NCBI GenBank assembly: GCA_009729775.1
Contig: GCA_009729775.1_4081.1
Direction: 5' to 3' (one strand)
Source: Escherichia coli
Lineage (GTDB): Bacteria; Pseudomonadota; Gammaproteobacteria; Enterobacterales; Enterobacteriaceae
Length of the DNA stretch: 64,000 nt
Position 1 is the first letter of the stretch. Each line of letters begins with the position of its first letter. Below, piece by piece: positions 28,092-63,972 of the stretch. The position numbers and the translations under genes are program-made. The notes under the pieces were generated by a model. The model was not told where the DNA came from. It did not search any database and was given only the letters and a program-made list of their open reading frames with translations.

Positions 28092-28100
28092 TTTGGTTTA

Positions 28101-29207: not shown

Positions 29208-29223
29208 ACCAAATCCTCCAGAT

Positions 29224-30078: not shown

Positions 30079-30092
30079 TCCTCATAAATTTA

Positions 30093-30233: not shown

Positions 30234-30235
30234 AC

Positions 30236-30709: not shown

Positions 30710-30751
30710 GATCTATCCTTGATCTTCTAATGCACTCCATGTGCGTTTTTA

Positions 30752-33017: not shown

Positions 33018-33026
33018 ATTTCATTC

Positions 33027-34751: not shown

Positions 34752-34769
34752 AAAATTCTCCTTTAGGAC

Positions 34770-34798
34770 AATGTATCATACAAAAATACCAGAGTCAA
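34770..34798 (-). promoter_or_regulatory. sigma70-like promoter (TTGACT-17-TACATT, TGn extended -10)
   Basis: Reverse complement reads TTGACTctggtatttttgtatgaTACATT upstream of AAAGGAG RBS and the ATG at 34751. Confidence 0.35.
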
Positions 34799-34812
34799 CC
34801 CCTGGTACGAAT

Positions 34813-38036: not shown

Positions 38037-38051
38037 CTCTAGTTAAAATCA

Positions 38052-38080
38052 AGTATAACACACCTGAATGCTCTTGTAAA
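38052..38080 (-). promoter_or_regulatory. sigma70-like promoter (TTTACA-17-TATACT)
   Basis: Reverse complement reads TTTACAagagcattcaggtgtgtTATACT between a terminator and the gene starting at 38036. Confidence 0.35.
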
Positions 38081-38089
38081 GCCATAAAC

Positions 38090-38112
38090 ACAAAAAGACC
38101 CATACGGGTCTT
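38090..38112 (-). terminator. rho-independent terminator
   Basis: AGACCC-atac-GGGTCT with T5 on minus strand. Confidence 0.6.
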
Positions 38113-38630
38113 TATTTTGGTAAAACACTGTCAATGTACGCTAGAACCTCATCTCGAAGGTACGTTCCATCTATAGTTAGGTAATAGTTCATGGGAATAT
38201 CACTCCCAACCTTCTCATAAATTTTCATACATGATATCACATCTTCATCACAAATGGTACTCAATTGAAAAAGAACTTCATCGGTTAACGGTACGATATC
38301 ATGTTTAGATAGGGGATTTGTATTTTCATTCAACACAATATTAATCAAGTTAGGAGTATTCTTTGACGAAATATAACGATGCTTACTACGAATTACCATT
38401 CTCGATAGTGAAATACTGGAACTCCATCTTGGATCAACATCTTCATATGATAACGATATTAACATCTCGTGAAAATCTTGAAATTTCATTGACGCATAAT
38501 ATGTTTTATCCTCACCGTACATACCAAATGATTTAAATTCAATATCCCCCACTTTGTATGTATCGACATCATTATTTGAGAACTTTATTAAACTATTAAT
38601 TAGTCTAATTAGAATATCATCTTTATCCAT
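38112..38630 (-). CDS. family A paralog
   Basis: motif TDEVLFQLSTICD; start trimmed to MDKDD to remove overlap. Confidence 0.55.
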   Translation of the reverse strand: MDKDDILIRLINSLIKFSNNDVDTYKVGDIEFKSFGMYGEDKTYYASMKFQDFHEMLISLSYEDVDPRWSSSISLSRMVIRSKHRYISSKNTPNLINIVLNENTNPLSKHDIVPLTDEVLFQLSTICDEDVISCMKIYEKVGSDIPMNYYLTIDGTYLRDEVLAYIDSVLPK

Positions 38631-39186
38631 TCTTAAATAACTCCAAGTGCATGTCGTATAAATCTCTGAAGTCTTCATAGAAATCTTTTTCTTCGAGAAT
38701 ATTCTTTAAACTGGGAATCTCTTCCATAATTTCATCTATATCTGATTCTATGAAAAATCCTGATGGATTATCGTAGTTTTGTAACAGATAACTGAAAGTA
38801 ATAATGTAAAGAAGTTCATTAGGATTGTGAATTAAACTTAGCTGGAACATAGCTGATTCTAAATCTGATTCAGTACTAAGATCAACCCAACGTGAATTTC
38901 TATAATCAACTCGTACTTGACTTGTATTTGGATTCCATGTGAAGCAATGTGTACCAATATGACCTATACAACCAACCCTTGTACTGTCTCCGGTATCAAC
39001 ACTGATATCAACAAATAGTTCAATACCGATATCGGTTGATGTTACACGACCTTTTTTCAGAAATAAATCATTATCCTTACGAAATTGTTTGGATGAAAGA
39101 GTGTCAATGATGCACATCAATGTTTTTGCAAATGCAACACAATGACGAAATTCAAGCCTATGAAATTGGTAATCATTGATATTCAT
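38623..39186 (-). CDS. family A paralog
   Basis: motif LESAMFQLSLIHN. Confidence 0.55.
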   Translation of the reverse strand: MNINDYQFHRLEFRHCVAFAKTLMCIIDTLSSKQFRKDNDLFLKKGRVTSTDIGIELFVDISVDTGDSTRVGCIGHIGTHCFTWNPNTSQVRVDYRNSRWVDLSTESDLESAMFQLSLIHNPNELLYIITFSYLLQNYDNPSGFFIESDIDEIMEEIPSLKNILEEKDFYEDFRDLYDMHLELFKNG

Positions 39187-39725
39187 AATTCAACCCTCAA
39201 TATTTTATCAGCAATTGATATAACCTTATCATTGAATACATTACCAATCTCAATCCTTATATACATAGCAGGTGGAATCTTTCCTTGTAGTGAATAATAT
39301 GTTTGTATACCTAAGTACTCATTATCTGATAATGAAAATTTGATTCTCTCCATATCAATGTCTGTTACTGGTAAATCTATCATTTCATAATGGTAGTCAA
39401 CGTTTTCAGTGTATATTTTATCGAAGTAATTTGAATAATCACTACTAATATAGATGCTATCATCACGAATAATCACTTTATAATCAGAAGGTTCAAATTT
39501 ATCTTTAGAAGAAAAGAATGCATCATCTATCTTCTCTTCTCTTATACCGAATAACATTTTACCATCATATTTTACATCAAGAATACTACCTAGTATATTA
39601 ATGGTACAATGCTCATCAATATTATGACGTAAAGAACGAGTCTTGTATTTTGGGTTAATGAAAATTTTCATTAATTTTATACAAATTTCAGTAATGCATT
39701 TTACATTCTCATTTTCTATGTACAT
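39183..39725 (-). CDS. family A-like paralog (divergent)
   Basis: weak motif ERIKFSLSDNEY. Confidence 0.4.
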   Translation of the reverse strand: MYIENENVKCITEICIKLMKIFINPKYKTRSLRHNIDEHCTINILGSILDVKYDGKMLFGIREEKIDDAFFSSKDKFEPSDYKVIIRDDSIYISSDYSNYFDKIYTENVDYHYEMIDLPVTDIDMERIKFSLSDNEYLGIQTYYSLQGKIPPAMYIRIEIGNVFNDKVISIADKILRVEL

Positions 39726-40212
39726 TAAAAGCCCTCTTTAATTCTTTTACATTTTTAATGAATACTTTCATTGCAGAAATCTCAAAAGATAATGTATTAA
39801 ATTTGCAGTACTTTTTAAAGTACGACATAATATATAACATTTTGAGTTCTTTTTCTGTATAAATTAAACTGTTTTGAAAGTAACTTTCTTCGGAAATGTC
39901 CGTAAGAAAAGAATAAAATGTATTTTGCTTGTGCACAATTTTAATACTATCAGACCAAGATTTGTAAGAAACGTAATCAGTACGTGCAAAATCATATAGT
40001 GAATTAGATGTATCTGTGTATGTTTCCGAGAACACAATCTTATATATCTTATCTTGAATTCGAGAACATATGTACCTATGGTCATCTGTCTCACTGATTG
40101 CAATGTATCTATGGAGTAAATCTTTATGAGCATTGATGAACTCAAACACTTCTAAACACTCCCTAGCGAACTTCATAGTTTCTCTGTACTTTCGGTTCAT
40201 TAGTCTCTCCAA
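39709..40212 (-). CDS. family A paralog
   Basis: motif SEESYFQNSLIY. Confidence 0.6.
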   Translation of the reverse strand: MERLMNRKYRETMKFARECLEVFEFINAHKDLLHRYIAISETDDHRYICSRIQDKIYKIVFSETYTDTSNSLYDFARTDYVSYKSWSDSIKIVHKQNTFYSFLTDISEESYFQNSLIYTEKELKMLYIMSYFKKYCKFNTLSFEISAMKVFIKNVKELKRAFNVHRK

Positions 40213-40613
40213 ACTTTACCAGGGAAGTGTTTCTCGTAGTACTCATCATCACTTAACATATAATCAGGAGTTTCTACTTCTATGGTTTTGAAGATTGTTT
40301 CTGGAATGTGTGTGACTTTATTGGGTTGTACTTTATGTTCGCGTAAAACCTTCTGTATCGCTCCTAGACGTTGTAAATCGATACATGTAGGAAAGACTAA
40401 GCTGTACTGAAATAACTCATCAGGGGTCATTATAGACACATCTTTAGCTTGTTTGATTTGATAATTAGTACTAATGAATATATCAAATCCTTGTACAGCA
40501 TTATAGCTTACATAGGTTGTTTTATTTTTGTCAATAGGAGCACTTAAACGATATCCATATATCCCGTGTTGGTCAACAACACATCGTTGCATAATTTTAA
40601 TCATTTCGAACAT
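40200..40613 (-). CDS. family A paralog
   Basis: motif PDELFQYSLVF. Confidence 0.6.
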   Translation of the reverse strand: MFEMIKIMQRCVVDQHGIYGYRLSAPIDKNKTTYVSYNAVQGFDIFISTNYQIKQAKDVSIMTPDELFQYSLVFPTCIDLQRLGAIQKVLREHKVQPNKVTHIPETIFKTIEVETPDYMLSDDEYYEKHFPGKVWRD

Positions 40614-40959
40614 AATTTACCTCGTGTGTGATATAACTCCACGCAGTAAGAATATCTATTTGTATATCCTGTACTTCATGAAAATATTTAAGTACCTTCT
40701 GGTATTCCATTATTTTGTACACATCTTCAGTACTGATAGTGCTCTGCTGAAACAATTCCTCTTCTGATAAAGTACTATAATCAGGGATTTTTATTTCTGA
40801 ATATATATCATTTATCTTTCCATTGTCTTGATAAATCTGGATATAAAATTGATTGTATTCTGGAATATAGGTTACATAATGATTGTGTCTGATTACATAT
40901 CTTGAAACAAAGTATTCAGTACCATCAGTCATGTACTGAATTGTTGTCGTATTTTGCAT
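40597..40959 (-). CDS. family A paralog
   Basis: motif SEEELFQQSTIS. Confidence 0.6.
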   Translation of the reverse strand: MQNTTTIQYMTDGTEYFVSRYVIRHNHYVTYIPEYNQFYIQIYQDNGKINDIYSEIKIPDYSTLSEEELFQQSTISTEDVYKIMEYQKVLKYFHEVQDIQIDILTAWSYITHEVNYVRND

Positions 40960-41419
40960 TCAAATAATCCACGCATTTATAGTATACTACTAAATCTAAA
41001 AAGAATCGTTGTTTGTATTTGTAATGATGAAGTAGTGCACCATAAAATAACATAGCATTAAGTACTTTTACATCATGAATACAAGAACCCTGAAAGTACA
41101 TTTCCTCTGACATGAACACTAAATCATCATACTTAACAAATACTGCTTCTCTATAATTGTCAATATTAATCTTCAAATCAGACCCAGGGCAATATGAAAT
41201 GTATCCGGCTTTGTAATGAAAGTCATTGTCATCAAAGTACTCGGTATAGATTTGATTACCTCTTTCATTAGTAAATGCAAGTCTTCCGTTGGATGAACTA
41301 AACTCATCGTATTCGAACATACCACCAAATGGGTCAGGACTTCTGAACTCCTTTGCAATGCGATAGATATTTTCTGCAAATTCTAAAACACCATCGTAAT
41401 CATATTCTGTAGTAATCAT
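40925..41419 (-). CDS. family A paralog
   Basis: motif SEEMYFQGSCIHD. Confidence 0.6.
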   Translation of the reverse strand: MITTEYDYDGVLEFAENIYRIAKEFRSPDPFGGMFEYDEFSSSNGRLAFTNERGNQIYTEYFDDNDFHYKAGYISYCPGSDLKINIDNYREAVFVKYDDLVFMSEEMYFQGSCIHDVKVLNAMLFYGALLHHYKYKQRFFLDLVVYYKCVDYLNAKYDNNSVHD

Positions 41420-41892
41420 AAACCATTTTTCTCCAGGTACTCAATAATACAATCGAGATTGTTCAGGTCCAAGTAGAAATGATCACTATCTGAATTTAGT
41501 TCATTTTTAAGGGCAGTGTAAATCACTGAACTGAAAACAATCCTCTCTGGATACACAGTACTGTACTGGAAGAACTCTTCTTCAGTGTTAATTTCAGCCG
41601 TATCAAATCCTTCATTTATAAGATGATGATTGTAGTATTTGAAATTATCTGAACTTGGGAAATGGTATGAAATAAAATCACCACTTGGTACTTCATCAAG
41701 CACTCTAATACTACAAGTTGATTCATCTGAACTATAGAGTAACACATCCATAAAGGAAAGGTATCCATTTCGTTTTTTGACTGTATGTTTGCCTACGGAA
41801 AAATCTTCAGTAACATTTGTAAGGAATTTATAAACCCTGATAATGTCTTTTGCTATTTTTTGTGCATTGCTAAATGATAGGTCTTTGGACAT
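41416..41892 (-). CDS. family A paralog
   Basis: motif TEEEFFQYSTVY; N-terminus MSKDLSFSNAQKIAKDI. Confidence 0.6.
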   Translation of the reverse strand: MSKDLSFSNAQKIAKDIIRVYKFLTNVTEDFSVGKHTVKKRNGYLSFMDVLLYSSDESTCSIRVLDEVPSGDFISYHFPSSDNFKYYNHHLINEGFDTAEINTEEEFFQYSTVYPERIVFSSVIYTALKNELNSDSDHFYLDLNNLDCIIEYLEKNGL

Positions 41893-41925
41893 TGTGATAT
41901 AACCCTTTACAATTAATATAAAGAG

Positions 41926-41955
41926 ATTATATCACAAAGAATCGGAGGGTGTCAA
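41926..41955 (-). promoter_or_regulatory. near-consensus sigma70 promoter (TTGACA-18-TGaTATAAT)
   Basis: Reverse complement reads CTTGACAccctccgattctttgtgaTATAAT about 30 nt before the ATG at 41892. Confidence 0.45.
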
Positions 41956-42488
41956 GATGGGTTGCGAAGTTCTACCATTTCTTTCCAAACTAATTGGTAA
42001 TCTTCTAAGTCCAGATAGAAGTCTTCATTCCAGTGCTCATGAAAGTACTTATACATGAATAGAACTCCTAAATCGTATGCAGGAAACAATAATGATAGTT
42101 GAAAGTAGTATTCCTGATTTAAAACTATATCAATAAACTCTAATGTACGTATGCCACCTTTCGATGAACGTATCTCAATGTGTGAGGTATCCTTCATACA
42201 GTAACACATGAAACCACCTCTAAATTCTGGATCATATTCACATTCGAACTGCTCACTGTTGTTATAGAAATCTCTCCCACTTTCTTGATCTTTCGGTCTA
42301 CGTACTGATACATGAATATTTTTATCACGGTACATTGAACGATTTAGTATTTTCAAACATTTGAACTTATCTTCTTTAATGAACTTGATAATATCAATTA
42401 TATCTTGTGCTGTACTGATAGCTGATTCGAATGTATCCAACTTAAGATGATTATATTGGGTTCCAGAGTTCATTTTTTTATCTAACAT
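41952..42488 (-). CDS. family A paralog
   Basis: motif NQEYYFQLSLLF; start trimmed to MLDKK. Confidence 0.55.
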   Translation of the reverse strand: MLDKKMNSGTQYNHLKLDTFESAISTAQDIIDIIKFIKEDKFKCLKILNRSMYRDKNIHVSVRRPKDQESGRDFYNNSEQFECEYDPEFRGGFMCYCMKDTSHIEIRSSKGGIRTLEFIDIVLNQEYYFQLSLLFPAYDLGVLFMYKYFHEHWNEDFYLDLEDYQLVWKEMVELRNPS

Positions 42489-42495
42489 ATAAACC

Positions 42496-42837
42496 TCATA
42501 ATTCATACATTTTTGATTTGAACTGCATATGACCACCTATTTCACATGGATAACAATTCATAATTTTGTTCAATAGAATCTGGTATTTTTTAATAACTTC
42601 TATATCAATTTTTATATTACTATTAAAAACTAATGATTCTTGAAATAATTCCCCCTCGTCAAGTGAAGTAAAATCATTTATCTTCAAGGGTATATTGTTG
42701 CATCGCAAGGAGAATGTATTTTCATCACGAATTAAAGTATAGAAATCATTATGTTTTTTATTATAATCAAATTTAACAAGTAGTAGTTTAATATGAGTAG
42801 CGTACATTACTTTAACTAATTCAGATTCACGTCGCAT
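42496..42837 (-). CDS. family A paralog
   Basis: motif DEGELFQESLVF. Confidence 0.6.
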   Translation of the reverse strand: MRRESELVKVMYATHIKLLLVKFDYNKKHNDFYTLIRDENTFSLRCNNIPLKINDFTSLDEGELFQESLVFNSNIKIDIEVIKKYQILLNKIMNCYPCEIGGHMQFKSKMYEL

Positions 42838-43193
42838 ACCATACCTCTCTTATGATGCAAACATTCTTGCATAATGTGTTGTATTTTTCGTAACAGAAAC
42901 ACATCCAGTTCATTAAAAACAGTACTGTACTGGAACATCTCTTCTTCCCCGTACTCAGTTAAATCATCAATTTCATCTCTAGAAACAGCTACAATATTAA
43001 AACCACGTGTACTACAATAACCCTTAGTAAGATAATATATGTACTTGTACTCTCCGTTGATATCTAAGAGATCTTGTGTGATACAGAAGCTTTTGGGTGA
43101 CAGTTTATCATCAGGAACCATATGCCTTGCTTGTACATAGCAACGGATACCATCACCTATACTATATGTAATAACTTCAAATTCAATCTTCAT
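42816..43193 (-). CDS. family A paralog
   Basis: motif GEEEMFQYSTVF; start trimmed to MKIEFEV. Confidence 0.55.
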   Translation of the reverse strand: MKIEFEVITYSIGDGIRCYVQARHMVPDDKLSPKSFCITQDLLDINGEYKYIYYLTKGYCSTRGFNIVAVSRDEIDDLTEYGEEEMFQYSTVFNELDVFLLRKIQHIMQECLHHKRGMVCDVNLN

Positions 43194-43545
43194 AGGTGAA
43201 TATAATCCTTTTATATTGCTCAGGTGCAGTACTGAAACGTTTGATTGGATAATTATCAAAGATTCTTTTCATTTCTTTCTGGATTAAACATAAGAAATCA
43301 AAGTTACAATCGTACTTATTATCCCATACTAAACTTTCTTGGAATAACTCATCCTCTTGCATTAGTGTAGTGTCAATTACATCTTCACGGACATAGCTAT
43401 ATACTTCATAGCTCTTGAAGCCATCTTCTGATAATTCTAATTCATATGCAGCCATATCAAACATATCATCATGGTTTGTCTTCAAAGATATTAAACAAGT
43501 AACTAATTTTTTAGTTGTATAGTATGTAATACTTAATGTGTTCAT
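43183..43545 (-). CDS. family A paralog
   Basis: motif QEDELFQESLVWD. Confidence 0.6.
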   Translation of the reverse strand: MNTLSITYYTTKKLVTCLISLKTNHDDMFDMAAYELELSEDGFKSYEVYSYVREDVIDTTLMQEDELFQESLVWDNKYDCNFDFLCLIQKEMKRIFDNYPIKRFSTAPEQYKRIIFTYED

Positions 43546-43550
43546 TTGTT

Positions 43551-44153
43551 TTATACCTCAGTATATAGCTTACAATAGCTTTCATCGAAATTACAAACAC
43601 TTCTCAAGTACTGACACAGGTCATTGAAAATATTTACATTTGATATATATACATTATCAAATTCTGTTCGTTGAAAGAATGTATGCATAGAATTTGTAAT
43701 ATATCGCATTGCATCTTCACGTCCCATAGTTATATCATTTGTGAACATTGCATCTTCATCAGTACTGATGTGTTCTATTTTAAATGATTTCATAAATGGA
43801 ATACTCTTTCCTAGGGCATAACCATCACCATATGATGCTTCTACTGCACCTTTAGAATAAAGGAATTGATATAAGTCCGAATCACGATTATAAAAAGTAC
43901 GACATACGGAGGAACATAATTTATTATCTATATGAAATAAAAATCTTTTAGCATTTTTGTCTAATACTATTCGCAATGCATCACTCTCTAGAAATATATC
44001 ACCATCAAGCATAAATGAGAACTGTACTAATGCTTTTTCTAAATCCGCTCGTTTGTGATAAATCATTTCCTGCATATATATAATATCATTTGCTAATTTC
44101 TTAAAAAACAAATGCACATCTGCACTACAACATTTATTTGCATTTATTGACAT
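43551..44153 (-). CDS. family A-like paralog (divergent)
   Basis: weak motif DEDAMFTNDIT. Confidence 0.4.
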   Translation of the reverse strand: MSINANKCCSADVHLFFKKLANDIIYMQEMIYHKRADLEKALVQFSFMLDGDIFLESDALRIVLDKNAKRFLFHIDNKLCSSVCRTFYNRDSDLYQFLYSKGAVEASYGDGYALGKSIPFMKSFKIEHISTDEDAMFTNDITMGREDAMRYITNSMHTFFQRTEFDNVYISNVNIFNDLCQYLRSVCNFDESYCKLYTEV

Positions 44154-44704
44154 AATAGTTCCTTATACATATGATGTACTTTACAAATCTCATTATAGTA
44201 TTTCATATCAATGTCATTTGTATTAAAAACGGAAACAGACAATACTGCTAACTTATCAATTAAGTAATTATTATCGGCGTACTCTTTTAACTTATTGAAC
44301 ATATAGATGCATTTTATGCTTAATTCATCATGCAACACACTGTTCTGAAAAATATTCTCTTCAGTATTAGGAGATAAGTAATCTTCAATTATATACGATA
44401 AACTACTATCGCAATCTTTATAGATTGAAATTGATGGATGTAATGTGTCATACATTACACTAAACAGAACACCGTCATATGTGGATATTAAACTATTATT
44501 GGAAACAGTAGGATGATAATATTTCAGTACTGAAAACTTTGAACAATCAGTGCAGTAAAAATGATCCATCCCTCGACGACTTTCGTATGAGAATAGTTTA
44601 CTTGTATATTCAATCCCTTTGGTGCGACGGATTGTTTCATGCATTTCTGCACATTGCATTAAAATTACCATACGTTCAAACGCAATATCTAAATCATCGT
44701 ACAT
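44144..44704 (-). CDS. family A paralog
   Basis: motif TEENIFQNSVLHD. Confidence 0.6.
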   Translation of the reverse strand: MYDDLDIAFERMVILMQCAEMHETIRRTKGIEYTSKLFSYESRRGMDHFYCTDCSKFSVLKYYHPTVSNNSLISTYDGVLFSVMYDTLHPSISIYKDCDSSLSYIIEDYLSPNTEENIFQNSVLHDELSIKCIYMFNKLKEYADNNYLIDKLAVLSVSVFNTNDIDMKYYNEICKVHHMYKELLCQ

Positions 44705-44885
44705 AACGGATATCCTTCTTCAGCGAATTAATATATTCCAAAATAACTTGTTCCTGATATTGGGTTCCCAAGTACATCAGGACTTTCAACTCTTTGAATT
44801 CAGTACTATATGAGTCTGTTTGCATCATTCTAGTAGAATATATATTGAATAGTTTAGCAATGTCATTTTGGTCTATTATTTTCAT
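44694..44885 (-). CDS. family B paralog (embedded in family A array)
   Basis: 63 aa; motif LMYLGTQYQEQVILEYINSLKK. Confidence 0.5.
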   Translation of the reverse strand: MKIIDQNDIAKLFNIYSTRMMQTDSYSTEFKELKVLMYLGTQYQEQVILEYINSLKKDIRYVR

Positions 44886-45084
44886 ATATTCTCTTCTGGA
44901 TTAGTTCCTGTAAGTGCTGAATATAACCCTTCATTGCAACATCCTGTTTGTTAGAGCCAACGAAGAACAAGAGCTTAAAGTCATGGTAATCCATTTTTGG
45001 TTTAGTAGTGAACCATATGTCCCACACTGCACTCACAGTTCTCATGTATTCAATTCGATTAAATGTTTTTGAATACTTCATCAA
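44863..45084 (-). CDS. family B-like paralog (embedded in family A array)
   Basis: 73 aa; motif FFVGSNKQDVAMKGYIQHLQEL. Confidence 0.45.
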   Translation of the reverse strand: MMKYSKTFNRIEYMRTVSAVWDIWFTTKPKMDYHDFKLLFFVGSNKQDVAMKGYIQHLQELIQKRIYENNRPK

Positions 45085-45595
45085 TGTTAATCGCCAATAA
45101 GTTAATATACAAATTACTGTTAAATGCTATCTGCAATTCCATATAGAACTGAATGATAGCATAGTCAGGGTCAGTACACGATAGTTGAAAACACTGTTCG
45201 TCAAATGCATTGTAATTGTACTTAGGGATGTGAATTTCACGCTTCAAATCAGGTTGACCCCACTTCATCGCATACACACCAATGTTATTGTTCTTTTTCC
45301 TTTTCTTAAATGTTAATTGTTGAATATTTCCAGCGTTGTCTAGGAAAATAGTATTATTCGACACAGGTGCACCAATAGAAAACAATGATGTATCAATTAC
45401 GTGTGTCTCACGCACCTCACACTTCTGGAATGCCCCAGTACCCTGTAATACATAATGAAAATTGTACTTCTCATTAACAACAGTACTAGGATCGATTAAA
45501 CCAGTACTGCATTTTTTGAGTACTGGTACAATGGTGCGAATCTTTTTTGATAAATCTTGTAATGCATCAAAGTCATTGATGTTAACTTTCATCAC
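45059..45595 (-). CDS. family A paralog
   Basis: motif FDEQCFQLSCTD. Confidence 0.55.
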   Translation of the reverse strand: MMKVNINDFDALQDLSKKIRTIVPVLKKCSTGLIDPSTVVNEKYNFHYVLQGTGAFQKCEVRETHVIDTSLFSIGAPVSNNTIFLDNAGNIQQLTFKKRKKNNNIGVYAMKWGQPDLKREIHIPKYNYNAFDEQCFQLSCTDPDYAIIQFYMELQIAFNSNLYINLLAINIDEVFKNI

Positions 45596-46041
45596 TCGAA
45601 TGTAGCCTCTTCAGTAGTAACAAAATTGGTTAGTGTATCCAGTTCAGCAGTGTCAAGATAAAATACATCTAGTACAGATTTCTGATATATTACACTGAAT
45701 GTGCATAGATTGTCAAGTGTCCCTTGTTCATAAACAGTACTACCCTGGAAGTACCCTTCTTCAGTACTCAGGGATAAAATATCTGAAATTTTAAAAGATT
45801 CTTCAGTTGCATGTCTTTCTATATTAACTATATTGCCGTTTCGGTTCAATGAAATATAATCGTATGCTAACTCAATTAGACTATAATTATCCGCATTAGT
45901 GTCAAATAAAGCGACAATTTTTCGTCTCAATCTCTCATCGTGATCATGGTTTTCATCAGCTAAGTATTCAGGATTTTCTTTGAAGAATTTAACGACGCGT
46001 AGAATATCATTTGCTTTCTTGATTGCACTTTCGTAACTCAT
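45592..46041 (-). CDS. family A paralog
   Basis: motif TEEGYFQGSTVY; N-terminus MSYESAIKKANDIL. Confidence 0.6.
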   Translation of the reverse strand: MSYESAIKKANDILRVVKFFKENPEYLADENHDHDERLRRKIVALFDTNADNYSLIELAYDYISLNRNGNIVNIERHATEESFKISDILSLSTEEGYFQGSTVYEQGTLDNLCTFSVIYQKSVLDVFYLDTAELDTLTNFVTTEEATFE

Positions 46042-57298: not shown

Positions 57299-57688
57299 CT
57301 AATCGTGCCATTTAATAGGATACTCCTTTCCTTGTACTACATAAGATATAATCCATCCGTAATGAATAGGACTATTCTTTTCTCCTTTAGGAATAAAATA
57401 TAAAGATGTACTAGGATTATAACTGAATAAATCATTATTGTCAAATGTAAAATGAGATAACGTTATCTTCCTTGTACTTGGACTAATAACATTCTTAACA
57501 CCAAACACGGTATCTTGATATTTCTCTGAAAATTCAAACAATGCATCTGTAATTAAATCATTGAATTCTATACATAATGGTTTAAAAGAACCATCATTAT
57601 CTTTGAATTCCTTATATAAAGAGCTTCTTGTATTCAAAAGAAATATTACTTTTTTAAGATCCTGAACTATTTCTGGATTCATATTCAT
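57299..57688 (-). CDS. hypothetical protein
   Basis: 129 aa ORF. Confidence 0.5.
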   Translation of the reverse strand: MNMNPEIVQDLKKVIFLLNTRSSLYKEFKDNDGSFKPLCIEFNDLITDALFEFSEKYQDTVFGVKNVISPSTRKITLSHFTFDNNDLFSYNPSTSLYFIPKGEKNSPIHYGWIISYVVQGKEYPIKWHD

Positions 57689-57920
57689 TTATCTCATTCT
57701 GTATCTTAAGCATCAAAATTTGCATATTAATTTTTTGTACAAGGTGCTTGATAAATTTCTGTGCCATTTCTTCTTGTTCTTTTGTACCAAGATAAAATAA
57801 CAGATTAAATTCTGATAATCGCAAAGAAAAATCTTCATCACCACCCTTTAAACAAAAATCCCTGTACTTTGTAGCGTACAAATATTGGTTTACCTTTTTA
57901 TAATACCCTGTGTTTTGCAT
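57654..57920 (-). CDS. family B paralog
   Basis: motif LFYLGTKEQEEMAQKFIKHL. Confidence 0.55.
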   Translation of the reverse strand: MQNTGYYKKVNQYLYATKYRDFCLKGGDEDFSLRLSEFNLLFYLGTKEQEEMAQKFIKHLVQKINMQILMLKIQNEINEYESRNSSGS

Positions 57921-58108
57921 ACTATCTCCGTTCGCAACGAATTTATATAATAATGAACAAATTGTTCTTGTGAACGTGTTCCAAGAAAAATAAACATATC
58001 AAACTCTGTTGTTTTTAAATTCAATGCATCTTTTGTAAAATTCCTGTTGAATTCCCTGTACTTTTGGGTCTTCCATTCTTGATTAATTGTCTTGTATATC
58101 GATTTCAA
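57890..58108 (-). CDS. family B paralog
   Basis: motif FIFLGTRSQEQFVHYYINSL. Confidence 0.55.
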   Translation of the reverse strand: MKSIYKTINQEWKTQKYREFNRNFTKDALNLKTTEFDMFIFLGTRSQEQFVHYYINSLRTEIVCKTQGIIKR

Positions 58109-58409
58109 TGATTCTCCCTGACATACCTTGTATTAGCTTATCATACATATCGAGCATCACTTTTTGAATATTAATTAGTACTGGCATCGTGCAAATATCA
58201 ATGTCGTATACTAAGCTGTACTGGAATAATTCATCTTCCTGCATTTGTACTAAATTAGGTAAAGGATAATTGTCTGCCTCTTCATCCTGATACTTGAAAT
58301 GCATAACACCATCCTTTTTGTACAAAAGAATGTCAATATCACCTAACTCTTCTGCATAACCAAAAATACATATACTCGATGTTTTTGCTATATTAAATTT
58401 CATATACAT
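58083..58409 (-). CDS. family A paralog
   Basis: motif QEDELFQYSLVYD. Confidence 0.6.
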   Translation of the reverse strand: MYMKFNIAKTSSICIFGYAEELGDIDILLYKKDGVMHFKYQDEEADNYPLPNLVQMQEDELFQYSLVYDIDICTMPVLINIQKVMLDMYDKLIQGMSGRIIEIDIQDN

Positions 58410-58411
58410 CC

Positions 58412-58753
58412 TTATACATAAATTTGATAGACATTTTGAACAAAATACTTTGGAAGACTACTATATGATATCATCTGCCTTTGTACTTCCTTCATCTCTT
58501 CCAATGTCAATCCCAAAGAATCATCGTGTACTATCATGTACTGAAACTCGTCTTCTTCAGAGATATCAAATAAATTCGGTACTGCAATTATATCAATACC
58601 TACCATCCAAAAAAAAGAATTATTACTTTTTCTGTACTCAAAAAAATTCAAAGAAGAACCACTCTGTAAATCAGATACCATAATGGAACATTCATCGTTA
58701 CGTACAATACAATTGAATTTACGCATTATCTCCACCTCTCTCCGTCTGTACAA
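58412..58753 (-). CDS. family A paralog
   Basis: motif SEEDEFQYMIVHD. Confidence 0.55.
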   Translation of the reverse strand: MYRRREVEIMRKFNCIVRNDECSIMVSDLQSGSSLNFFEYRKSNNSFFWMVGIDIIAVPNLFDISEEDEFQYMIVHDDSLGLTLEEMKEVQRQMISYSSLPKYFVQNVYQIYV

Positions 58754-58971
58754 GAGTACTGGTACGTTGTCGTTAGGGTAGGGACCATGTTTGTAATGGG
58801 CATGTTGTTAACAATAACCGTAACAGGCATAAGAATCGTCTCTTCTCTACTCTGTCCTGTCCTTGTGCAATTCATCTTTTGCATTTCATCTGAATCCATG
58901 AAATACAATACAAATGGTGCAATCCCAAGAACAATACACAAGACGATAAGGAAATTTAAAAAATTTAACAT
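58726..58971 (-). CDS. small membrane protein (start uncertain)
   Basis: 81 aa; hydrophobic N-terminus FLIVLCIVLGIAPFVLYF. Confidence 0.35.
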   Translation of the reverse strand: MLNFLNFLIVLCIVLGIAPFVLYFMDSDEMQKMNCTRTGQSREETILMPVTVIVNNMPITNMVPTLTTTYQYSCTDGERWR

Positions 58972-59030
58972 AATTTTTACCCTATGATTAACGTTAGTGT
59001 ACTATATCAGTAATGAAAAGTACTATCAAG

Positions 59031-59417
59031 CTAGTATTGCACTGTTCTAATGAAAGTGCCTGAACTCATGGATTTAAGCTTATGAACCTCTTCCTGTATA
59101 CCCTTGATTAACCCTAAAGGTATAGGTACATCATGTACTAAGCTGTACTGAAAGTATTCTTCTTCAGATAAAGTACTAACATCTGGAACTCCAATTTTAG
59201 TTAGATAATCTTGATGTGTTGACCAATAAATTATATCTTCAGTAGAATTGTACTCCCCATATACTGAACAATATTGATGAATATCTTTCCTGTACCCTTG
59301 AGCAATAAAGAACTTATCTACTGCATTACCAGCATTAATAGAATTCACTTCGATTGTCACAGTACTTGAGCTTGTATAACTCTTAATACTCAACTGTGTG
59401 TTCTTCATAATCACCAT
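59031..59417 (-). CDS. family A paralog
   Basis: motif SEEEYFQYSLVHD. Confidence 0.6.
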   Translation of the reverse strand: MVIMKNTQLSIKSYTSSSTVTIEVNSINAGNAVDKFFIAQGYRKDIHQYCSVYGEYNSTEDIIYWSTHQDYLTKIGVPDVSTLSEEEYFQYSLVHDVPIPLGLIKGIQEEVHKLKSMSSGTFIRTVQY

Positions 59418-59727
59418 TAGGCTCCTGTTTAGATTCTTTCATTAGTACTATCATCTTATGTACTAATGGCATAGGGAACTCTAAATCCCATACTAATGAT
59501 TCCTGGAAGTATTCCTCTGGTGATAAAGTACTTAAATCTTTAATATCAACGTGCTTGTATATTTTATTTTCGTAATTAACAAATGATATATATAAATCAC
59601 TAACATAAGAATCATAGGTAATTGTGAATGGCTTACCCTTGTAATCCATTACATCTCTACATAGACTACTTTTGATATATGTATGTTCAAATGATTTATA
59701 TACCTTGAGTTGTATATTAGTTTTCAT
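59383..59727 (-). CDS. family A paralog
   Basis: motif SPEEYFQESLVWD. Confidence 0.6.
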   Translation of the reverse strand: MKTNIQLKVYKSFEHTYIKSSLCRDVMDYKGKPFTITYDSYVSDLYISFVNYENKIYKHVDIKDLSTLSPEEYFQESLVWDLEFPMPLVHKMIVLMKESKQEPNGDYEEHTVEY

Positions 59728-59992
59728 ATTTCTCTTTATTAGCTTGTTTGGTTTTATAGTGAATTAAATCTATTAATGTAATCAAGTACAACTTCAAAAA
59801 GTACTCTTGATGGTTCGTACCTAATGATACAAAGAATTTATGCTCATAAATTAAAACCTGTTTCACTTCAAAAGGACACTTAATCCTCTGTATAGGTTTA
59901 AGTAAATGGTAGTACTTGTATAATCTATTATGCATTTCTAATTCAGATAGTACTTTCATATTAAACACATACTCCATTAGCTGTAGCATCAC
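59717..59992 (-). CDS. family B paralog
   Basis: motif FFVSLGTNHQEYFLKLYLITL. Confidence 0.55.
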   Translation of the reverse strand: MMLQLMEYVFNMKVLSELEMHNRLYKYYHLLKPIQRIKCPFEVKQVLIYEHKFFVSLGTNHQEYFLKLYLITLIDLIHYKTKQANKEKYEN

Positions 59993-60182
59993 GTAAAGCT
60001 GTCAAATACTTCTGTACTGCTTGCTCTTGCTTATTTGTACCTAAAAGTATATACATCCATAATTCACTGTAATGTACATCTTGTGTATAAGGGTTGTTGT
60101 AACTTTTTGATAATATAGCATCAAATTCAGATGCATGAACCCTTGTGAACTTAAGCATATCTTGTTGTGTTATGATTCTCAT
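59961..60182 (-). CDS. family B paralog
   Basis: motif YILLGTNKQEQAVQKYLTAL. Confidence 0.6.
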   Translation of the reverse strand: MRIITQQDMLKFTRVHASEFDAILSKSYNNPYTQDVHYSELWMYILLGTNKQEQAVQKYLTALRDATANGVCV

Positions 60183-60394
60183 ATCTTTTCCTGTATAAGC
60201 TTCTTAAGAATCTCAATATATGAATTAACAGTTCTCTCTTGATGCTGTGTTCCTAAGAGTGTCAGTACTATCATATCTGAACGCAAAAGATTTTTTTCAA
60301 GTTCACTTATATCAGTTCTTGAATCAAGTGCCATATATTTGTGATTATTCTTCCTGAATAGTGCCAAGTACTCTTGATTTGATATTTCCTTCAT
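60179..60394 (-). CDS. family B paralog
   Basis: motif VLTLLGTQHQERTVNSYIEIL. Confidence 0.6.
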   Translation of the reverse strand: MKEISNQEYLALFRKNNHKYMALDSRTDISELEKNLLRSDMIVLTLLGTQHQERTVNSYIEILKKLIQEKI

Positions 60395-60618
60395 AGTCTA
60401 TCCTTGATGCCATTTAAAAGTGCTCTAATATGCTCATTGACAAAACGCTCTTGGGAATCTGTGTTTAGAGTGAGAAGCATTCTTAAATCTGAACTTTTTA
60501 TATGATATTCTAAATCATTCTTTGATTCTCGCATAAGTTTCTGAAAGGATGAGAAGTGTAATCCCATGAGTTCAATGTATTCTGCTGTTCCTAGGGGTTT
60601 GTGTATATGTTTGTGCAT
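60391..60618 (-). CDS. family B paralog
   Basis: motif LLTLNTDSQERFVNEHIRAL. Confidence 0.55.
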   Translation of the reverse strand: MHKHIHKPLGTAEYIELMGLHFSSFQKLMRESKNDLEYHIKSSDLRMLLTLNTDSQERFVNEHIRALLNGIKDRL

Positions 60619-60830
60619 TTTAATTGTATTACCCTTTTGAGTGTATTAATGTAATTATACACATTGGCTTCTTGATAGTTAGTTCCTAGAGTAGCTTGAA
60701 CGTAGATTTCATTTAACTTAATGATTTTATCAGTATCTGGTAGTTTTGATGTGTTAATGGCAAATAACTTCAAAAACAGTCCATTTATGATTGTTAGGTA
60801 TTCTTCTTCTGTAATGATTTTCATTTGCAT
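60591..60830 (-). CDS. family B paralog
   Basis: motif VQATLGTNYQEANVYNYINTL. Confidence 0.6.
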   Translation of the reverse strand: MQMKIITEEEYLTIINGLFLKLFAINTSKLPDTDKIIKLNEIYVQATLGTNYQEANVYNYINTLKRVIQLKCTNIYTNP

Positions 60831-61036
60831 TTTCTCAGTACTGATTCTTTAAGTTCATTGATGTAGTCCTCAATGTATTGCTCTTGTAAGTTAGTTCCAA
60901 CATATAAAAGAACTCTTAAATCGGCTCTAAGTACTTCTTTGTCATCATCATCTATATCAGACAGTGTTATGTTTAAGAATTTACTTGCATTCTCTATAAG
61001 TAATATTACTGAATCACCTTCGCTTAAAATTTTCAT
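60821..61036 (-). CDS. family B paralog
   Basis: motif LLYVGTNLQEQYIEDYINEL. Confidence 0.6.
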   Translation of the reverse strand: MKILSEGDSVILLIENASKFLNITLSDIDDDDKEVLRADLRVLLYVGTNLQEQYIEDYINELKESVLRKCK

Positions 61037-61244
61037 AATCTCTTTTTGCTTTCCTCGCCAAAAGGTACATATACGATTCTTCGTATTGTGCTTGATAGTT
61101 TGTGTTTAAGAGTCGAAACAACTTCTGTTCTGCTAGAACGAGTTGCTTATCTTCATAACAACGATAGCGTATCAACTTTTTGTATTCGATGTTGATTACA
61201 TCCATTACTATAAGCCCATGTTCATCATCTGTCAAGTGTTTCAT
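61014..61244 (-). CDS. family B paralog
   Basis: motif FRLLNTNYQAQYEESYMYLL. Confidence 0.55.
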   Translation of the reverse strand: MKHLTDDEHGLIVMDVINIEYKKLIRYRCYEDKQLVLAEQKLFRLLNTNYQAQYEESYMYLLARKAKRDYENFKRR

Positions 61245-61470
61245 GTATCTTTTCCTTAATAGTGATTTTAAGAGATTTAATTATACGTTCAACGTGATAC
61301 TCCTGTCTATCAGTTCCAAGAAGGTATGGTAGTGCTTGGAATAGAGCTTCCGCATTCTTTTCCTCTGGGGTTTGGTTTGGATCATTAGGAAGTTGATTGG
61401 CATATCTCTTGGCACTAACTAATCTCTCGACGTATTCATTATATGTTAAGTATATCATTTCATTTTGCAT
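61225..61470 (-). CDS. family B paralog
   Basis: motif LPYLLGTDRQEYHVERIIKSL; close paralog of the next gene. Confidence 0.6.
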   Translation of the reverse strand: MQNEMIYLTYNEYVERLVSAKRYANQLPNDPNQTPEEKNAEALFQALPYLLGTDRQEYHVERIIKSLKITIKEKIHETLDR

Positions 61471-61696
61471 TTACTTTTTCCTTAATAGTAATTTTAAGAT
61501 ATTTAATTATACGTTCAATGTGATACTCTTGCCTATCAGTTCCAAGAAGGTATGGTAATCTTTGGAATAAAACTTCTGCACTCCTTTCTGCTGGGGTTTG
61601 GTTTGTGTTGTGAGGAAGTTTATTTGTAAGTCTTTTGGATTTATCTAGTCTTTCTGTTAACTCATCATGTGTTAAGTATATCATTTCCTTTTGCAT
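61460..61696 (-). CDS. family B paralog
   Basis: motif LPYLLGTDRQEYHIERIIKYL. Confidence 0.6.
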   Translation of the reverse strand: MQKEMIYLTHDELTERLDKSKRLTNKLPHNTNQTPAERSAEVLFQRLPYLLGTDRQEYHIERIIKYLKITIKEKVNAK

Positions 61697-61923
61697 TTAA
61701 TGTTCCTTACGTAAATTGTCTGGATTAAACAATCAATCCACGTTTGAATATATTGGTTTTGATACTGTGTGCCTAAAAGACTCTGCATTTTAAACTCTGC
61801 TTCAAGTTCATATCTCTTTTCTATAGAAAAGCTTAAATGACCATATTCCCTATCGTATCTTCTATGAGCTTCGCCAAGTCTATCAAATCTTTCTGATAAT
61901 CTGATGTTATTAATTTTATTCAT
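61681..61923 (-). CDS. family B paralog
   Basis: motif MQSLLGTQYQNQYIQTWIDCL. Confidence 0.6.
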   Translation of the reverse strand: MNKINNIRLSERFDRLGEAHRRYDREYGHLSFSIEKRYELEAEFKMQSLLGTQYQNQYIQTWIDCLIQTIYVRNIKCKRK

Positions 61924-62210
61924 CGCTCAGTACACCTTAGTGGACGGGTCATTTGATAAAAGTACAGCTTACCTCTGATTTCCATTAGTAATTCATTTAA
62001 TACGCGTTCTACCTCTTGTTCTTGATAGTTCGTGCCTAACAATGCACCCATCTTTAACTCACGCATCATAATCATCTTCTTACTGTGTTGAATTTCTGGG
62101 TTGTGATAGATTGTATTACGTTTAAGAGTAATTTTTGCCATACGCTCGGTATATTCATCTTTACTTAAATTAATCATTTTCATGTTAATTACCCTTACAT
62201 TTATTTTCAA
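61920..62210 (-). CDS. family B paralog
   Basis: motif MGALLGTNYQEQEVERVLNEL. Confidence 0.6.
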   Translation of the reverse strand: MKINVRVINMKMINLSKDEYTERMAKITLKRNTIYHNPEIQHSKKMIMMRELKMGALLGTNYQEQEVERVLNELLMEIRGKLYFYQMTRPLRCTER

Positions 62211-62415
62211 TACTATTCATGAGTTCTATAAGATAGTTTTCTACCTTACCTTCCTGATAGTTAGTCCCTAGGAAGTTGCACAACACGGCTTCTATAATTT
62301 TGATTTTCCTGATATCCGACTTCAATCTTTTGTTATTGAATATTTGAATCCTTATATCTCTGGATGCATTTAAACGTTTTTGATAGTCATGGTAAGTTAA
62401 ATGAATCATTTTCAT
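62185..62415 (-). CDS. family B paralog
   Basis: motif LCNFLGTNYQEGKVENYLIEL. Confidence 0.6.
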   Translation of the reverse strand: MKMIHLTYHDYQKRLNASRDIRIQIFNNKRLKSDIRKIKIIEAVLCNFLGTNYQEGKVENYLIELMNSIENKCKGN

Positions 62416-62630
62416 TTACGTTTAACCTCTCGCTGGAGGGCATCAATTAACATTAGTACAGCATTCTCTTGATAGTTTGTTCCTAAGACTGAAAGCATCT
62501 TTATCTCATTTACTAAAATCAACTTCTTTGAGGGTTCAATAATGTGACTATCATAAACGGCCTTACGTGCTGGATAAGTTTTCGCCAGTATAACATAAAA
62601 TTCGTCTTTACTTAAATTAATCATTTGCAT
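62412..62630 (-). CDS. family B paralog
   Basis: motif LSVLGTNYQENAVLMLIDAL. Confidence 0.6.
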   Translation of the reverse strand: MQMINLSKDEFYVILAKTYPARKAVYDSHIIEPSKKLILVNEIKMLSVLGTNYQENAVLMLIDALQREVKRK

Positions 62631-62839
62631 TTACTTTTAACCTCTTTCTGTAGAGCGTCAATCCATAGATCTACATACATTTGTTGATAGTTTGTGTCTA
62701 TTAGTGCACCTACATAGAGTTCAGCTACCATTGCGTGCTTTATGTCAATAGGGATGCTCTTATCAGATTGAATCTTTCTCCTTCTGCTTCCACATGTTTT
62801 CAGGAGCCTGATGTATTCAAAACCTTGTAAATTTCTCAT
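62621..62839 (-). CDS. family B paralog
   Basis: motif GALIDTNYQQMYVDLWIDAL. Confidence 0.55.
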   Translation of the reverse strand: MRNLQGFEYIRLLKTCGSRRRKIQSDKSIPIDIKHAMVAELYVGALIDTNYQQMYVDLWIDALQKEVKSKCK

Positions 62840-63051
62840 ATTTTGGATACCACCTTGTTACGTAAGGAACTTAATAATACGTCAGTGTAGATGTTTTGAT
62901 AGTTTGTTCCTACGAATGCACCCAACTTCATTTCAGCTATTATAACACATTTGTCCTCTTGTGCAATAGACTTGTCTAAAGAAATACTAACAACTTTCCC
63001 TCTTATAGTTTGTAACCTCCAATGATACTGATACTCATTAAGGATTATCAT
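62836..63051 (-). CDS. family B paralog
   Basis: motif GAFVGTNYQNIYTDVLLSSL. Confidence 0.6.
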   Translation of the reverse strand: MIILNEYQYHWRLQTIRGKVVSISLDKSIAQEDKCVIIAEMKLGAFVGTNYQNIYTDVLLSSLRNKVVSKI

Positions 63052-63298
63052 TCTCTCGTCTCCAGATTTCGGTTCTCATGTGTTGGCAGTGTGCATCAAT
63101 ATATTGCTCTATCGATCTGGCGATTGCTGTTTTATCAGTGCCTGTCATCAGTACAAGCATCTCTGCCTCACTATGAATTAAACGCATGATATCATAGGGT
63201 AATATTTCAGATACTGTATCATAGTGTTTGTGTGTCAGTGTCTGCAATAGTTTACAATACATTTTGTGATTTAGTCTTTGTCGCATTGTTTCTTCCAT
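63038..63298 (-). CDS. family B-like paralog (divergent)
   Basis: motif LVLMTGTDKTAIARSIEQYIDA. Confidence 0.45.
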   Translation of the reverse strand: MEETMRQRLNHKMYCKLLQTLTHKHYDTVSEILPYDIMRLIHSEAEMLVLMTGTDKTAIARSIEQYIDAHCQHMRTEIWRRENDNP

Positions 63299-63543
63299 TC
63301 TCTTCTGGCTTGACGGGTTTTTTCTGATATTTCGTTTCTCAATGCAGAGATATATCGTAGAGTGAACAGTTCTTGATAGTTAGTCCCTATGAATTTATTA
63401 AGATATACATCAGCGTTGACGATATCAGCTTCACGGGAATTATAAAGTTTATTGTTCGTGCGAAGGGTGTTTAGAAGAGAGAAGAGGGCAGTCTGATACT
63501 CAGTGCTTGATAAAGTTTTCATATTTTTCCACAATTCGTTCAT
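63271..63543 (-). CDS. family B paralog
   Basis: motif NKFIGTNYQELFTLRYISAL. Confidence 0.6.
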   Translation of the reverse strand: MNELWKNMKTLSSTEYQTALFSLLNTLRTNNKLYNSREADIVNADVYLNKFIGTNYQELFTLRYISALRNEISEKTRQARREWKKQCDKD

Positions 63544-63757
63544 TTAGTTTTATCTGTATAAGATCCATTAGTTGTTCAAGATAATCGGTACAATATTTCT
63601 CTTGATATTGGGTTCCCACAAAGTACAGCAACCATAGCTCATGAACTTTAACTTTCATCTCGTTCCATGAAAGTGCATCGTCATCGTAGATTACTCTTGC
63701 TTCTGGGGTGAGCTTTCTAACTCTAATTGAATATTCATCGTCAGTTAAGTGTTTCAT
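63500..63757 (-). CDS. family B paralog
   Basis: motif LLYFVGTQYQEKYCTDYLEQL. Confidence 0.6.
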   Translation of the reverse strand: MKHLTDDEYSIRVRKLTPEARVIYDDDALSWNEMKVKVHELWLLYFVGTQYQEKYCTDYLEQLMDLIQIKLNERIVEKYENFIKH

Positions 63758-63972
63758 TTACATTTATCCCTTATTAGATTTGTGAGGGCAACTATGTGTG
63801 CAACAACATACTCTTCCTGAAAGTTCGTCCCCAGTACAGCCATCATGCGTATATCGGTGGTGTTTATCCTGTGTTCCCTTACACATAAACCTTCTTTGTG
63901 AGGAAGTGTAAAATATTTGTTTATTGCAGCAATGACAATTTTATTCTTCTCGGTGATACTTAAATGTTTCAT
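63754..63972 (-). CDS. family B paralog
   Basis: motif MAVLGTNFQEEYVVAHIVAL. Confidence 0.6.
   Translation of the reverse strand: MKHLSITEKNKIVIAAINKYFTLPHKEGLCVREHRINTTDIRMMAVLGTNFQEEYVVAHIVALTNLIRDKCK

Follow-up and report, generated by a model that had tools for sequence, protein, structure and literature searches.

A tandem array of small, predicted three-helix proteins beside the terminal repeat of Asteriusvirus-like jumbo phages

Gene content of the family B array

The stretch of DNA analyzed here (the window) comprises 64 kb of an Escherichia coli assembly (GCA_009729775.1, contig GCA_009729775.1_4081.1); it is AT-rich (~32% GC) and carries nearly all of its genes on the minus strand. 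It comes from a PBECO4/121Q-like phage of the genus Asteriusvirus and matches E. coli and Salmonella jumbo phages of that genus with genomes of ~350 kb, among them PBECO4, 121Q, UB, G17, and Sharanji. Jumbo phages are considered as therapy candidates, and no function is known for over 80% of their genes. Two orphan protein families, termed here family A (motif EE-x-FQ-x-S) and family B, fill ~30 kb beside the Asteriusvirus terminal repeat. In this work, family B, which is represented in the window by 23 co-oriented open reading frames (ORFs) on the minus strand, is characterized by profile searches, structure prediction, and comparison with related phages.

An original prediction, made from the sequence alone, had described about 23 co-oriented copies of a small protein with an LLGTNYQE core. 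All 23 ORFs were found where it had placed them, on the minus strand, and 22 of them are robust. A profile of the 23 proteins, compared with all stop-to-stop segments in the six frames of the window, matched these 23 and none else, and 22 of the 23 copies were recovered at E <= 4e-7 in a leave-one-out (LOO) profile test. The remaining copy of 86 amino acids (aa) at 63038..63298 (LOO E 0.1) keeps the GT but has GTDKT followed by an insertion, has lost the Q and has no PHROG match; judged by its sequence, it is best called a degenerate, marginal member of the family, and its syntenic ortholog in UB and G17 is 87-94% identical. In the alignment of the 23 copies the mean column identity is 26%, with T, Q, and L nearly invariant. 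When 43 database relatives are included (66 sequences in total), conservation reaches at least 90% at positions G48, T49, Q52, and L63, and the consensus reads LLGTNYQExYVxxxIxxLxxxIxxK, which agrees with the proposed motif.

Read along the minus strand, the main array starts in the window with the last complete copy before the window end (63754..63972, 72 aa; LOO E 1.2e-16), which has a strong Shine-Dalgarno (SD) sequence, AGGAG. It is followed by the 85-aa gene whose protein was modelled with AlphaFold2 (63500..63757; LOO E 8.2e-19, phrog_4148 E 1.6e-24), a 90-aa gene (63271..63543; LOO E 4.7e-13), the marginal copy, and genes of 71 aa (62836..63051; 2e-13), 72 aa (62621..62839; 5.7e-17), again 72 aa (62412..62630; 7.4e-18; ortholog 100% identical in UB and G17), and 76 aa (62185..62415; 1e-17). 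Next are the ORF 61920..62210, 96 aa as listed (2.1e-19), an 80-aa gene with a 45% identical counterpart in G17 (61681..61923; 2.8e-9), and the two members of a recent duplication, 61460..61696 (78 aa; 2.8e-17) and 61225..61470 (81 aa; 9.5e-19), which share 67% of their residues and are underlain by a tandem duplication of the DNA at 61250..61699 (period 226, two copies, 81% match). The array continues with a 76-aa gene carrying the motif variant NTNYQA (61014..61244; 4e-7), the most acidic copy (60821..61036, 71 aa, isoelectric point (pI) 4.4; 1.3e-16), genes of 79 aa (60591..60830; 1.4e-18), 75 aa with the variant NTDSQ (60391..60618; 2.4e-11), 71 aa (60179..60394; 1.6e-15), and 73 aa (59961..60182; 9.9e-13), and ends with its promoter-distal last copy, 91 aa as listed (59717..59992; 3e-10).

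Four further family B genes lie in two pairs outside the main array. The first pair comprises genes of 72 aa (57890..58108; LOO E 4.3e-13; UB ortholog 100% identical) and 88 aa (57654..57920; 1.9e-7), and between this pair and the main array lie four family-A-type genes and one gene for a membrane protein. The latter (58726..58971, minus strand) encodes 81 aa with a hydrophobic N-terminal segment, matches phrog_8826 and is a probable membrane protein; since UB has another insert in the same slot, a gene for a 269-aa family B fusion (P0194, AXC36995), this is a variable spot in the locus. The second pair, embedded in the family A array, consists of a 73-aa gene with the variant GSNKQD (44863..45084; 2e-7; G17 ortholog 97%) and a 63-aa gene (44694..44885; 4.5e-12).

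Where one family B gene meets the next, stop and start overlap by 4-44 nt, often as ATGA; the overlaps as such had been noted originally. In 13-14 of the 19 main-array genes an SD core lies 6-13 nt before the start, within the end of the preceding gene. At the junctions 61460..61470, 61225..61244, 62412..62415, and similar ones, the SD core of the downstream gene (AAGGA, GAGG) is formed by the codons for the conserved basic C-terminus of the upstream protein (...I-K-E-K or V-K-R-K...). The conservation of K70 and of the basic tail may therefore come partly from translational coupling and not from protein function. For 61920..62210 and 59717..59992, an internal ATG that matches the family B N-terminus is the probable start (62183, MKMINL..., with an SD before it, and 59959, MKVLSELEM, respectively); perhaps the same holds for 63271..63543, with a possible start at 63522. 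Inside the window's array, promoters and terminators were not enriched over shuffled sequences, and no RNA element with an Rfam match was found in the array. The small genes are real and together make up one long operon with translational coupling.

Protein family, predicted fold, and distribution

Among the protein family collections searched, only PHROG contained family B: 21 of the 23 window proteins match PHROG 4148 end to end (best E 1e-25), a family catalogued without function, structure, or genomic context, which misses the two most divergent copies. The Pfam scan of all 23 proteins yielded no family at E <= 0.001, the NCBIfam scan of the same proteins gave a single, spurious match (one member, E 0.002), and a profile of the 66 aligned sequences matched no PDB sequence at E <= 1. 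Thus, the motif, which the original prediction did not recognize, has PHROG 4148, with its unassigned function, as its sole match. A HMMER search against 1.84 billion cluster representatives detected 87 proteins at E <= 0.001, nearly all of 50-96 aa, and a word-indexed search of 5.8 billion proteins detected 147; all those with names belong either to phage records of E. coli or Salmonella or to E. coli assemblies, in which the longest contig is often the size of a phage genome.

For the protein of 63500..63757, AlphaFold2 with the 66-sequence alignment predicted a three-helix bundle with a predicted local distance difference test score (pLDDT) of 97 and a predicted template modelling score (pTM) of 0.80, in line with the small helical module suggested earlier. 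The modelled helices span residues 6-24, 31-46, and 52-84, and a single beta-bridge connects residue 2 to T49. Structural matches to the model were generic only, and in a BFVD fold search the matches below E 0.1 all belonged to the same phage family. The conserved columns comprise hydrophobic heptad positions, an N-terminal M-K-x-L, and the polar set E40, G48, T49, N50, Q52, E53, and K70, while the most variable columns, 14-35, correspond to the end of helix 1, the following loop, and the start of helix 2. In our reading of the model, the LGTNYQE block would form the clasp and the start of helix 3 and would hence be fold-determining; alternatively, it may be an exposed shared site. No enzyme-like motif was seen in family B. 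No helix-turn-helix (HTH) family was matched in the Pfam scans, and the fold comparison did not show HTH geometry with HTH or homeodomain proteins as structural neighbours. The Pfam scans also gave no match to immunity proteins of colicins or polymorphic toxins, and the neighbouring genes scanned were family A or unassigned, without a toxin domain.

Family B is unusually basic, with a median pI of 9.1 and only 17% of the copies acidic (four copies, the lowest at pI 4.4), whereas family A and the other window ORFs have median pI values of 4.8 and 5.3, respectively, and are both 87-89% acidic. With respect to the virion, mass spectrometry of phAPEC6 particles identified 62 proteins, none of them in gp348-gp548, the range of the arrays, although a protein of 4.7 kDa was detected (PMC7247149). 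The phAPEC6 protein gp481c is a member of family B.

By tblastn (protein of 62185..62415), family B was found in 36 phage records, all Asteriusvirus-like. Searches of this type with single divergent members are too insensitive, and the relatives outside the genus were detected by profile scans and by looking up contigs that encode an exact protein match. In Klebsiella phage K64-1 (Alcyoneusvirus), 13 family B copies lie in groups of one to three among 25 family A matches. Four uncultured contigs have 12-17 tandem family B copies and essentially no nucleotide similarity to the window; in three of them family A genes adjoin or interrupt the family B genes, and one derives from a 101-kb assembly whose upstream part resembles the repeat-region genes of Asteriusvirus and K64-1. 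Orthology cannot be traced across genera, because identity between genera is no higher than between paralogs. In the upstream repeat-like early regions, ParE-like or YafQ-like toxin-family proteins are encoded in one uncultured contig (L007, 3046..3297) and in K64-1 (12613..12861), and K64-1 also encodes a protein kinase there.

Some members beyond Asteriusvirus have a common C-terminal extension of ~50 residues (...F.V......E....A..Y.K.NNY...) without a family match; it is present in K64-1 at 17322..17687 and 20667..21014 and in the uncultured contigs L007 (12370..12768) and L006 (8428..8835), and from its sequence it looks like a small separate domain. The UB protein P0194, introduced above, combines an N-terminal family B domain (E 1e-13) with an orphan extension of 205 aa. 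This protein was considered as a "Rosetta stone" fusion of families B and A and rejected as such, as the 205 aa do not match the family A profile; this part has no Pfam, PHROG, or PDB relative and retrieved only itself among 5.8 billion proteins. Homology of families A and B themselves, considered because of their FQxS and YQE motifs, was likewise rejected (hhalign probability 0.3%), and the predicted folds differ: a beta-sheet with two helices for family A and a three-helix bundle for family B.

Genomic setting and turnover between strains

The continuation of the array beyond position 64000, predicted from the sequence, was confirmed in the relatives: UB has five more copies past the ortholog of the window's last gene, and G17 also has five, after which its array stops. 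In total, 30 family B copies were counted in UB (32 kb examined), 33 in G17 (46 kb), 31 in Sharanji (24 kb), and 30 in fEgEco12 (12 kb). These counts depend on the stretch of genome examined: the main array and the pair at 57.7 kb are included in every stretch, the pair at 44.7 kb in that of G17 alone.

The array ends close to the direct terminal repeat (DTR) of the genome. In G17 the DTR is exact and 20,668 bp long (positions 1-20,668 are identical to 350,150-370,817, with 0 mismatches), and the main array runs up to it as 29 contiguous copies, the first gene lying 98 bp from the DTR boundary. In fEgEco12 the main array has 28 contiguous copies, from 21,091 to 27,277, and starts likewise 98 bp from the DTR. 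No family B match was found in positions 1-25,000 of G17, which include the DTR; the array thus starts just outside it. Between the DTR boundary and the first array gene, a sigma-70-like promoter with 10 of 12 consensus positions is conserved in the two phages (TTGACT-16-TAAAAT in G17, with TATTAT as the -10 box in fEgEco12). The G17 DTR itself contains, within ~10 kb, nine perfect 12/12 promoters (TTGACA-16/17-TATAAT), all on the array strand and alternating with terminators; far below one such promoter is expected by chance, as estimated from base frequencies.

In the right DTR of G17 (MK327931), which corresponds to 25151..45818 of the stretch examined, such promoters lie, for example, at 26934..26907, 28458..28431, and 35379..35352, and a composite element is repeated, AAAGGGATTGACTCCGGTCAGTCCCTTT GCTATTATAT. 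It consists of a terminator-like hairpin that holds a -35 box, followed by a -10 box; with this arrangement it may end transcription of one small gene and start that of the next, as a terminator-promoter cassette. The window, too, has a perfect sigma-70 promoter (12/12, TTGACA-17-TATAAT) at 57444..57416 (minus strand), inside ORF 57299..57688 and just downstream of the two-gene family B block, where it could restart transcription into the family A array.

Downstream of the arrays, the co-oriented genes of the minus strand encode a ClpP-family protease (4881..5576), an ATP-dependent DNA ligase (7254..8672), a T4-type polynucleotide kinase/phosphatase (PNK, 14972..15904), and RNA ligase 1 (Rnl1, 17001..18143), and the window has two metallophosphoesterase genes (6443..7246 and 10806..11564, minus strand). 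PNK and Rnl1 are the tRNA-repair pair of phage T4. By analogy with T4, they would supply the function behind a published suggestion that phAPEC6 may counter the Prr abortive-infection system (PMC7247149). In PA5oct, a related jumbo phage, the DTR genes are early transcripts (bioRxiv 10.1101/679506); our literature search turned up no Asteriusvirus transcriptomes. Since the array adjoins the DTR, follows sigma-70 promoters, parallels the PA5oct arrangement, and precedes genes of the types listed above, its setting appears to be that of early, non-structural genes; the early timing itself is suggested by analogy.

The original prediction had also described a module multiplied about 20-fold and diversified, with adjacent copies from close to highly divergent. 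The first part is supported and extended by the 28-33 copies per genome in the relatives. As for divergence, paralogs are 20-35% identical irrespective of their distance in the array, the exceptions being one pair with 67% aa identity, 61225..61470 and 61460..61696, which is the single close pair, and one pair with 44%. The two genes of the close pair correspond to one G17 gene, their ratio of non-synonymous to synonymous substitution rates (dN/dS) is 0.39, and of their 30 non-synonymous changes, 24 lie in the N-terminal 60%. For most window copies, G17 and UB contain a syntenic ortholog with 82-100% identity; a few are far more diverged, down to 45%. The ratio of non-synonymous to synonymous differences (pN/pS), pooled over the orthologs of the window and UB or G17, is 0.38. 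Because of the paralog divergence, the presence of orthologs, and this ratio, the copies are read as old, individually maintained genes under relaxed purifying selection.

Between strains, the locus is mosaic. The array is 89.6% identical to that of UB over its full length, 92% identical to that of G17 over only 59% coverage, and 88-95% identical to those of other phages with partial coverage, whereas the block from the ligase to Rnl1 shares 97.7% identity with G17 and UB (coverage 96-100%). Compared with its surroundings, the array locus evolves much faster. Within one genome pair, the synonymous divergence (dS) of individual genes ranges from 0 to 1.07, and this spread indicates allele replacement by recombination. 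Whole family B genes are also present in some strains and absent from others.

Possible function and known counterparts

We tentatively propose, at a confidence somewhat short of even, that family B is a panel of small, early, cytoplasmic, non-structural binding proteins built on a three-helix scaffold and used in host takeover or counter-defence. In this reading, the best supported of those considered, the repertoire turns over between strains, by allele exchange and by gene gain and loss. A binding role would fit the small size, the lack of a catalytic-looking motif, the combination of a conserved core with a variable surface, and the absence from the virion; the description of a diversified helical module, taken over from the original prediction, is reasonable but unproven. 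In mechanistic terms, the array would be a multigene family of ~8-kDa, soluble, mostly basic three-helix bundles that act early and outside the virion. Host RNA polymerase would transcribe it from the conserved sigma-70-like promoter, 98 bp into the unique region, and perhaps also by reading through from the neighbouring terminal repeat, and translation would be coupled from gene to gene by the overlapping stop and start codons and by the SD sequences inside the preceding genes. Every copy would keep the scaffold, namely, the hydrophobic core, the N-terminal residue bridged to the loop between helices 2 and 3, and the LGTNYQE block that starts helix 3, and would differ at exposed, copy-specific positions in helix 1, the loop between helices 1 and 2, and part of helix 2. 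Each paralog would then bind a different host macromolecule, protein or nucleic acid, stoichiometrically, and the paralogs would jointly form a panel of takeover or counter-defence factors.

Several points weigh against this proposal. The early timing rests on promoter matches and analogy, and the array, starting outside the DTR, is not strictly in the early region described for PA5oct. Virion mass spectrometry can miss small proteins. The basic charge could point to a shared nucleic-acid ligand instead of many targets. Gene-wide positive selection was considered and rejected, as both the ortholog pN/pS of 0.38 and the dN/dS of 0.39 for the duplicate pair are below 1.

The charge is the starting point of an unlikely but serious alternative, in which the small family B proteins would bind nucleic acids, for instance as regulators, RNA chaperones, or DNA-coating proteins acting on phage or host DNA or RNA, with paralogs that differ in sequence preference or timing. 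It is consistent with the contrast between the basic family B (median pI 9.1) and the acidic rest of the window, with semi-conserved K/R residues at positions 2, 11, 19, 34, 42, 64, and 70, and with a superficial likeness, in our reading of the sequence, of hydrophobic-G-T-x-x-Q to the turn and recognition-helix start of an HTH; the fold and Pfam comparisons described above found no HTH. Transcription-factor or DNA-binding roles were also proposed for the ~35-copy zinc ribbons of phage G (Iyer et al. 2021, PMC7824862). The opposite charge of the two families can also be read as a sign of partnership, that is, family B proteins could be subunits, inhibitors, or adaptors of family A proteins in one combinatorial system. 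We consider this improbable, despite the fact that genes of the two families intermingle or adjoin in all lineages examined: in the window the family B pairs at 44.7-45.1 and 57.7-58.1 kb lie inside the family A array, and the family B blocks are in turn separated by A-type genes (58.1-59.7 kb); K64-1 mixes 13 family B with 25 family A copies; and the uncultured contigs L006, L007, and L008 are arranged alike. However, the genes are not regularly paired one to one, their order is not fixed, the acidity of family A is the norm of the proteome, hhalign shows no relation between the families, and the C-terminal part of P0194 is not family A; the co-location may only reflect a shared, expandable early accessory region.

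Quite unlikely, in our assessment, is that the array is largely neutral filler, in which tandem duplication enlarged the genome to fit a larger, head-full capsid. Hua et al. interpreted a tandem array of 121Q in this way, without specifying the family (PMC5646251); moreover, one recent duplication is visible, copy number varies between strains, and constraint is relaxed relative to typical core genes (pN/pS 0.38). Yet copies only 20-35% identical retain intact frames and the fold-defining residues, their orthologs are under purifying selection even at dS 0.5-1.0, and the family persists in K64-1, a phage of another genus, and in uncultured lineages without nucleotide similarity to the window. 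The idea that deserves the least credence among those weighed makes family B proteins minor parts of the virion or of the internal head, or assembly chaperones, for instance linked to the hairy fibres or the inner body. The fibres of Asteriusvirus are unusual, and it has an inner body with components that are only partly assigned (PMC7247149); small basic proteins could accompany the packaged DNA, but no family B protein is among the 62 phAPEC6 virion proteins, despite detection of the 4.7-kDa protein, and the array belongs to a block of small, non-structural genes by sigma-70 promoters, far from the structural modules.

A more specific form of the proposed panel of binding proteins, which we regard as doubtful as a whole, would be a set of ~30 mini-binders on one scaffold, expressed first from the genome end, each directed against a different host defence protein, toxin, or nucleic-acid sensor, possibly in cooperation with family A. 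Shuffling between strains would set the host range, and the system would be the phage counterpart of the terminal gene families of poxviruses and African swine fever virus (ASFV). If family B is an early set of host binders, it could supply a large number of as yet unexploited inhibitors that act on defence or housekeeping proteins of bacteria, could help explain host-range differences between near-identical therapeutic phages, and would offer a natural 70-residue scaffold as an evolvable platform for binders. Should the array turn out to be dispensable, it would clearly exemplify genome padding that is driven by capsid size and still kept in frame by selection. With the family profile, the predicted fold, and the array boundaries (promoter, DTR junction, and last gene) defined, the question is now testable, and the array is a discrete block that could be deleted or swapped.

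This locus may have been noted before. Hua et al. read the 121Q array as a duplication that aids genome expansion (PMC5646251), and Wagemans et al. (2020) made the same remark for phAPEC6 (PMC7247149). These mentions, of one sentence each and the only ones found in the literature, probably concern this locus, given the same genus and a similar copy number; families A and B both reach the size of the published array in this genus. The published copies were called "very similar", whereas the family B copies are 20-35% identical and each is individually conserved. One published sentence may already refer to the array, and the family was catalogued without function; no account of the function, structure, or placement of family B was found in the literature. 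New here are a confident predicted fold, the placement at the DTR junction behind a conserved promoter, ancient and individually maintained copies, mosaic turnover between strains, the basic charge, and the spread to another genus, always together with family A.

Among phages, the nearest published case is the ~35-copy zinc-ribbon expansion of phage G, described by Iyer et al. (2021), who did not discuss family B (PMC7824862). Both are found in jumbo phages, comprise ~30-35 copies of one very small protein, and have a function that is only guessed; unlike the zinc ribbons, family B is a predicted three-helix bundle without a conserved Cys/His pattern, in an unrelated phage lineage. Colicin Im and polymorphic-toxin immunity proteins are helical bundles of ~70-90 aa with a conserved scaffold and a variable specificity surface, sometimes in tandem arrays. 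Family B differs from them in having no profile match, no adjacent toxin gene, and three helices instead of the four of Im7 and Im9. The pre-early first-step-transfer genes of T5 are small, co-oriented genes at the genome end, transcribed by host RNA polymerase and linked to host takeover. Family B resembles these and the terminal-repeat early genes of PA5oct as a small co-oriented block at the genome end, but no copy lies within the repeat, and the array begins 98 bp beyond its boundary.

Among viruses in general, the ASFV families MGF110, MGF360, and MGF505 and the terminal host-range families of poxviruses consist of tandem, co-oriented, non-structural paralogs located by the terminal repeats and gained or lost between strains. 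The family B array is likewise tandem, co-oriented, and adjacent to the DTR of a linear genome, and its copies and alleles vary between strains. It differs in showing no detectable sequence or fold relation to these families, in belonging to a bacterial virus, and in encoding much smaller proteins. Judged by architecture and dynamics only, the terminal families of poxviruses and ASFV are its closest analogues in kind.

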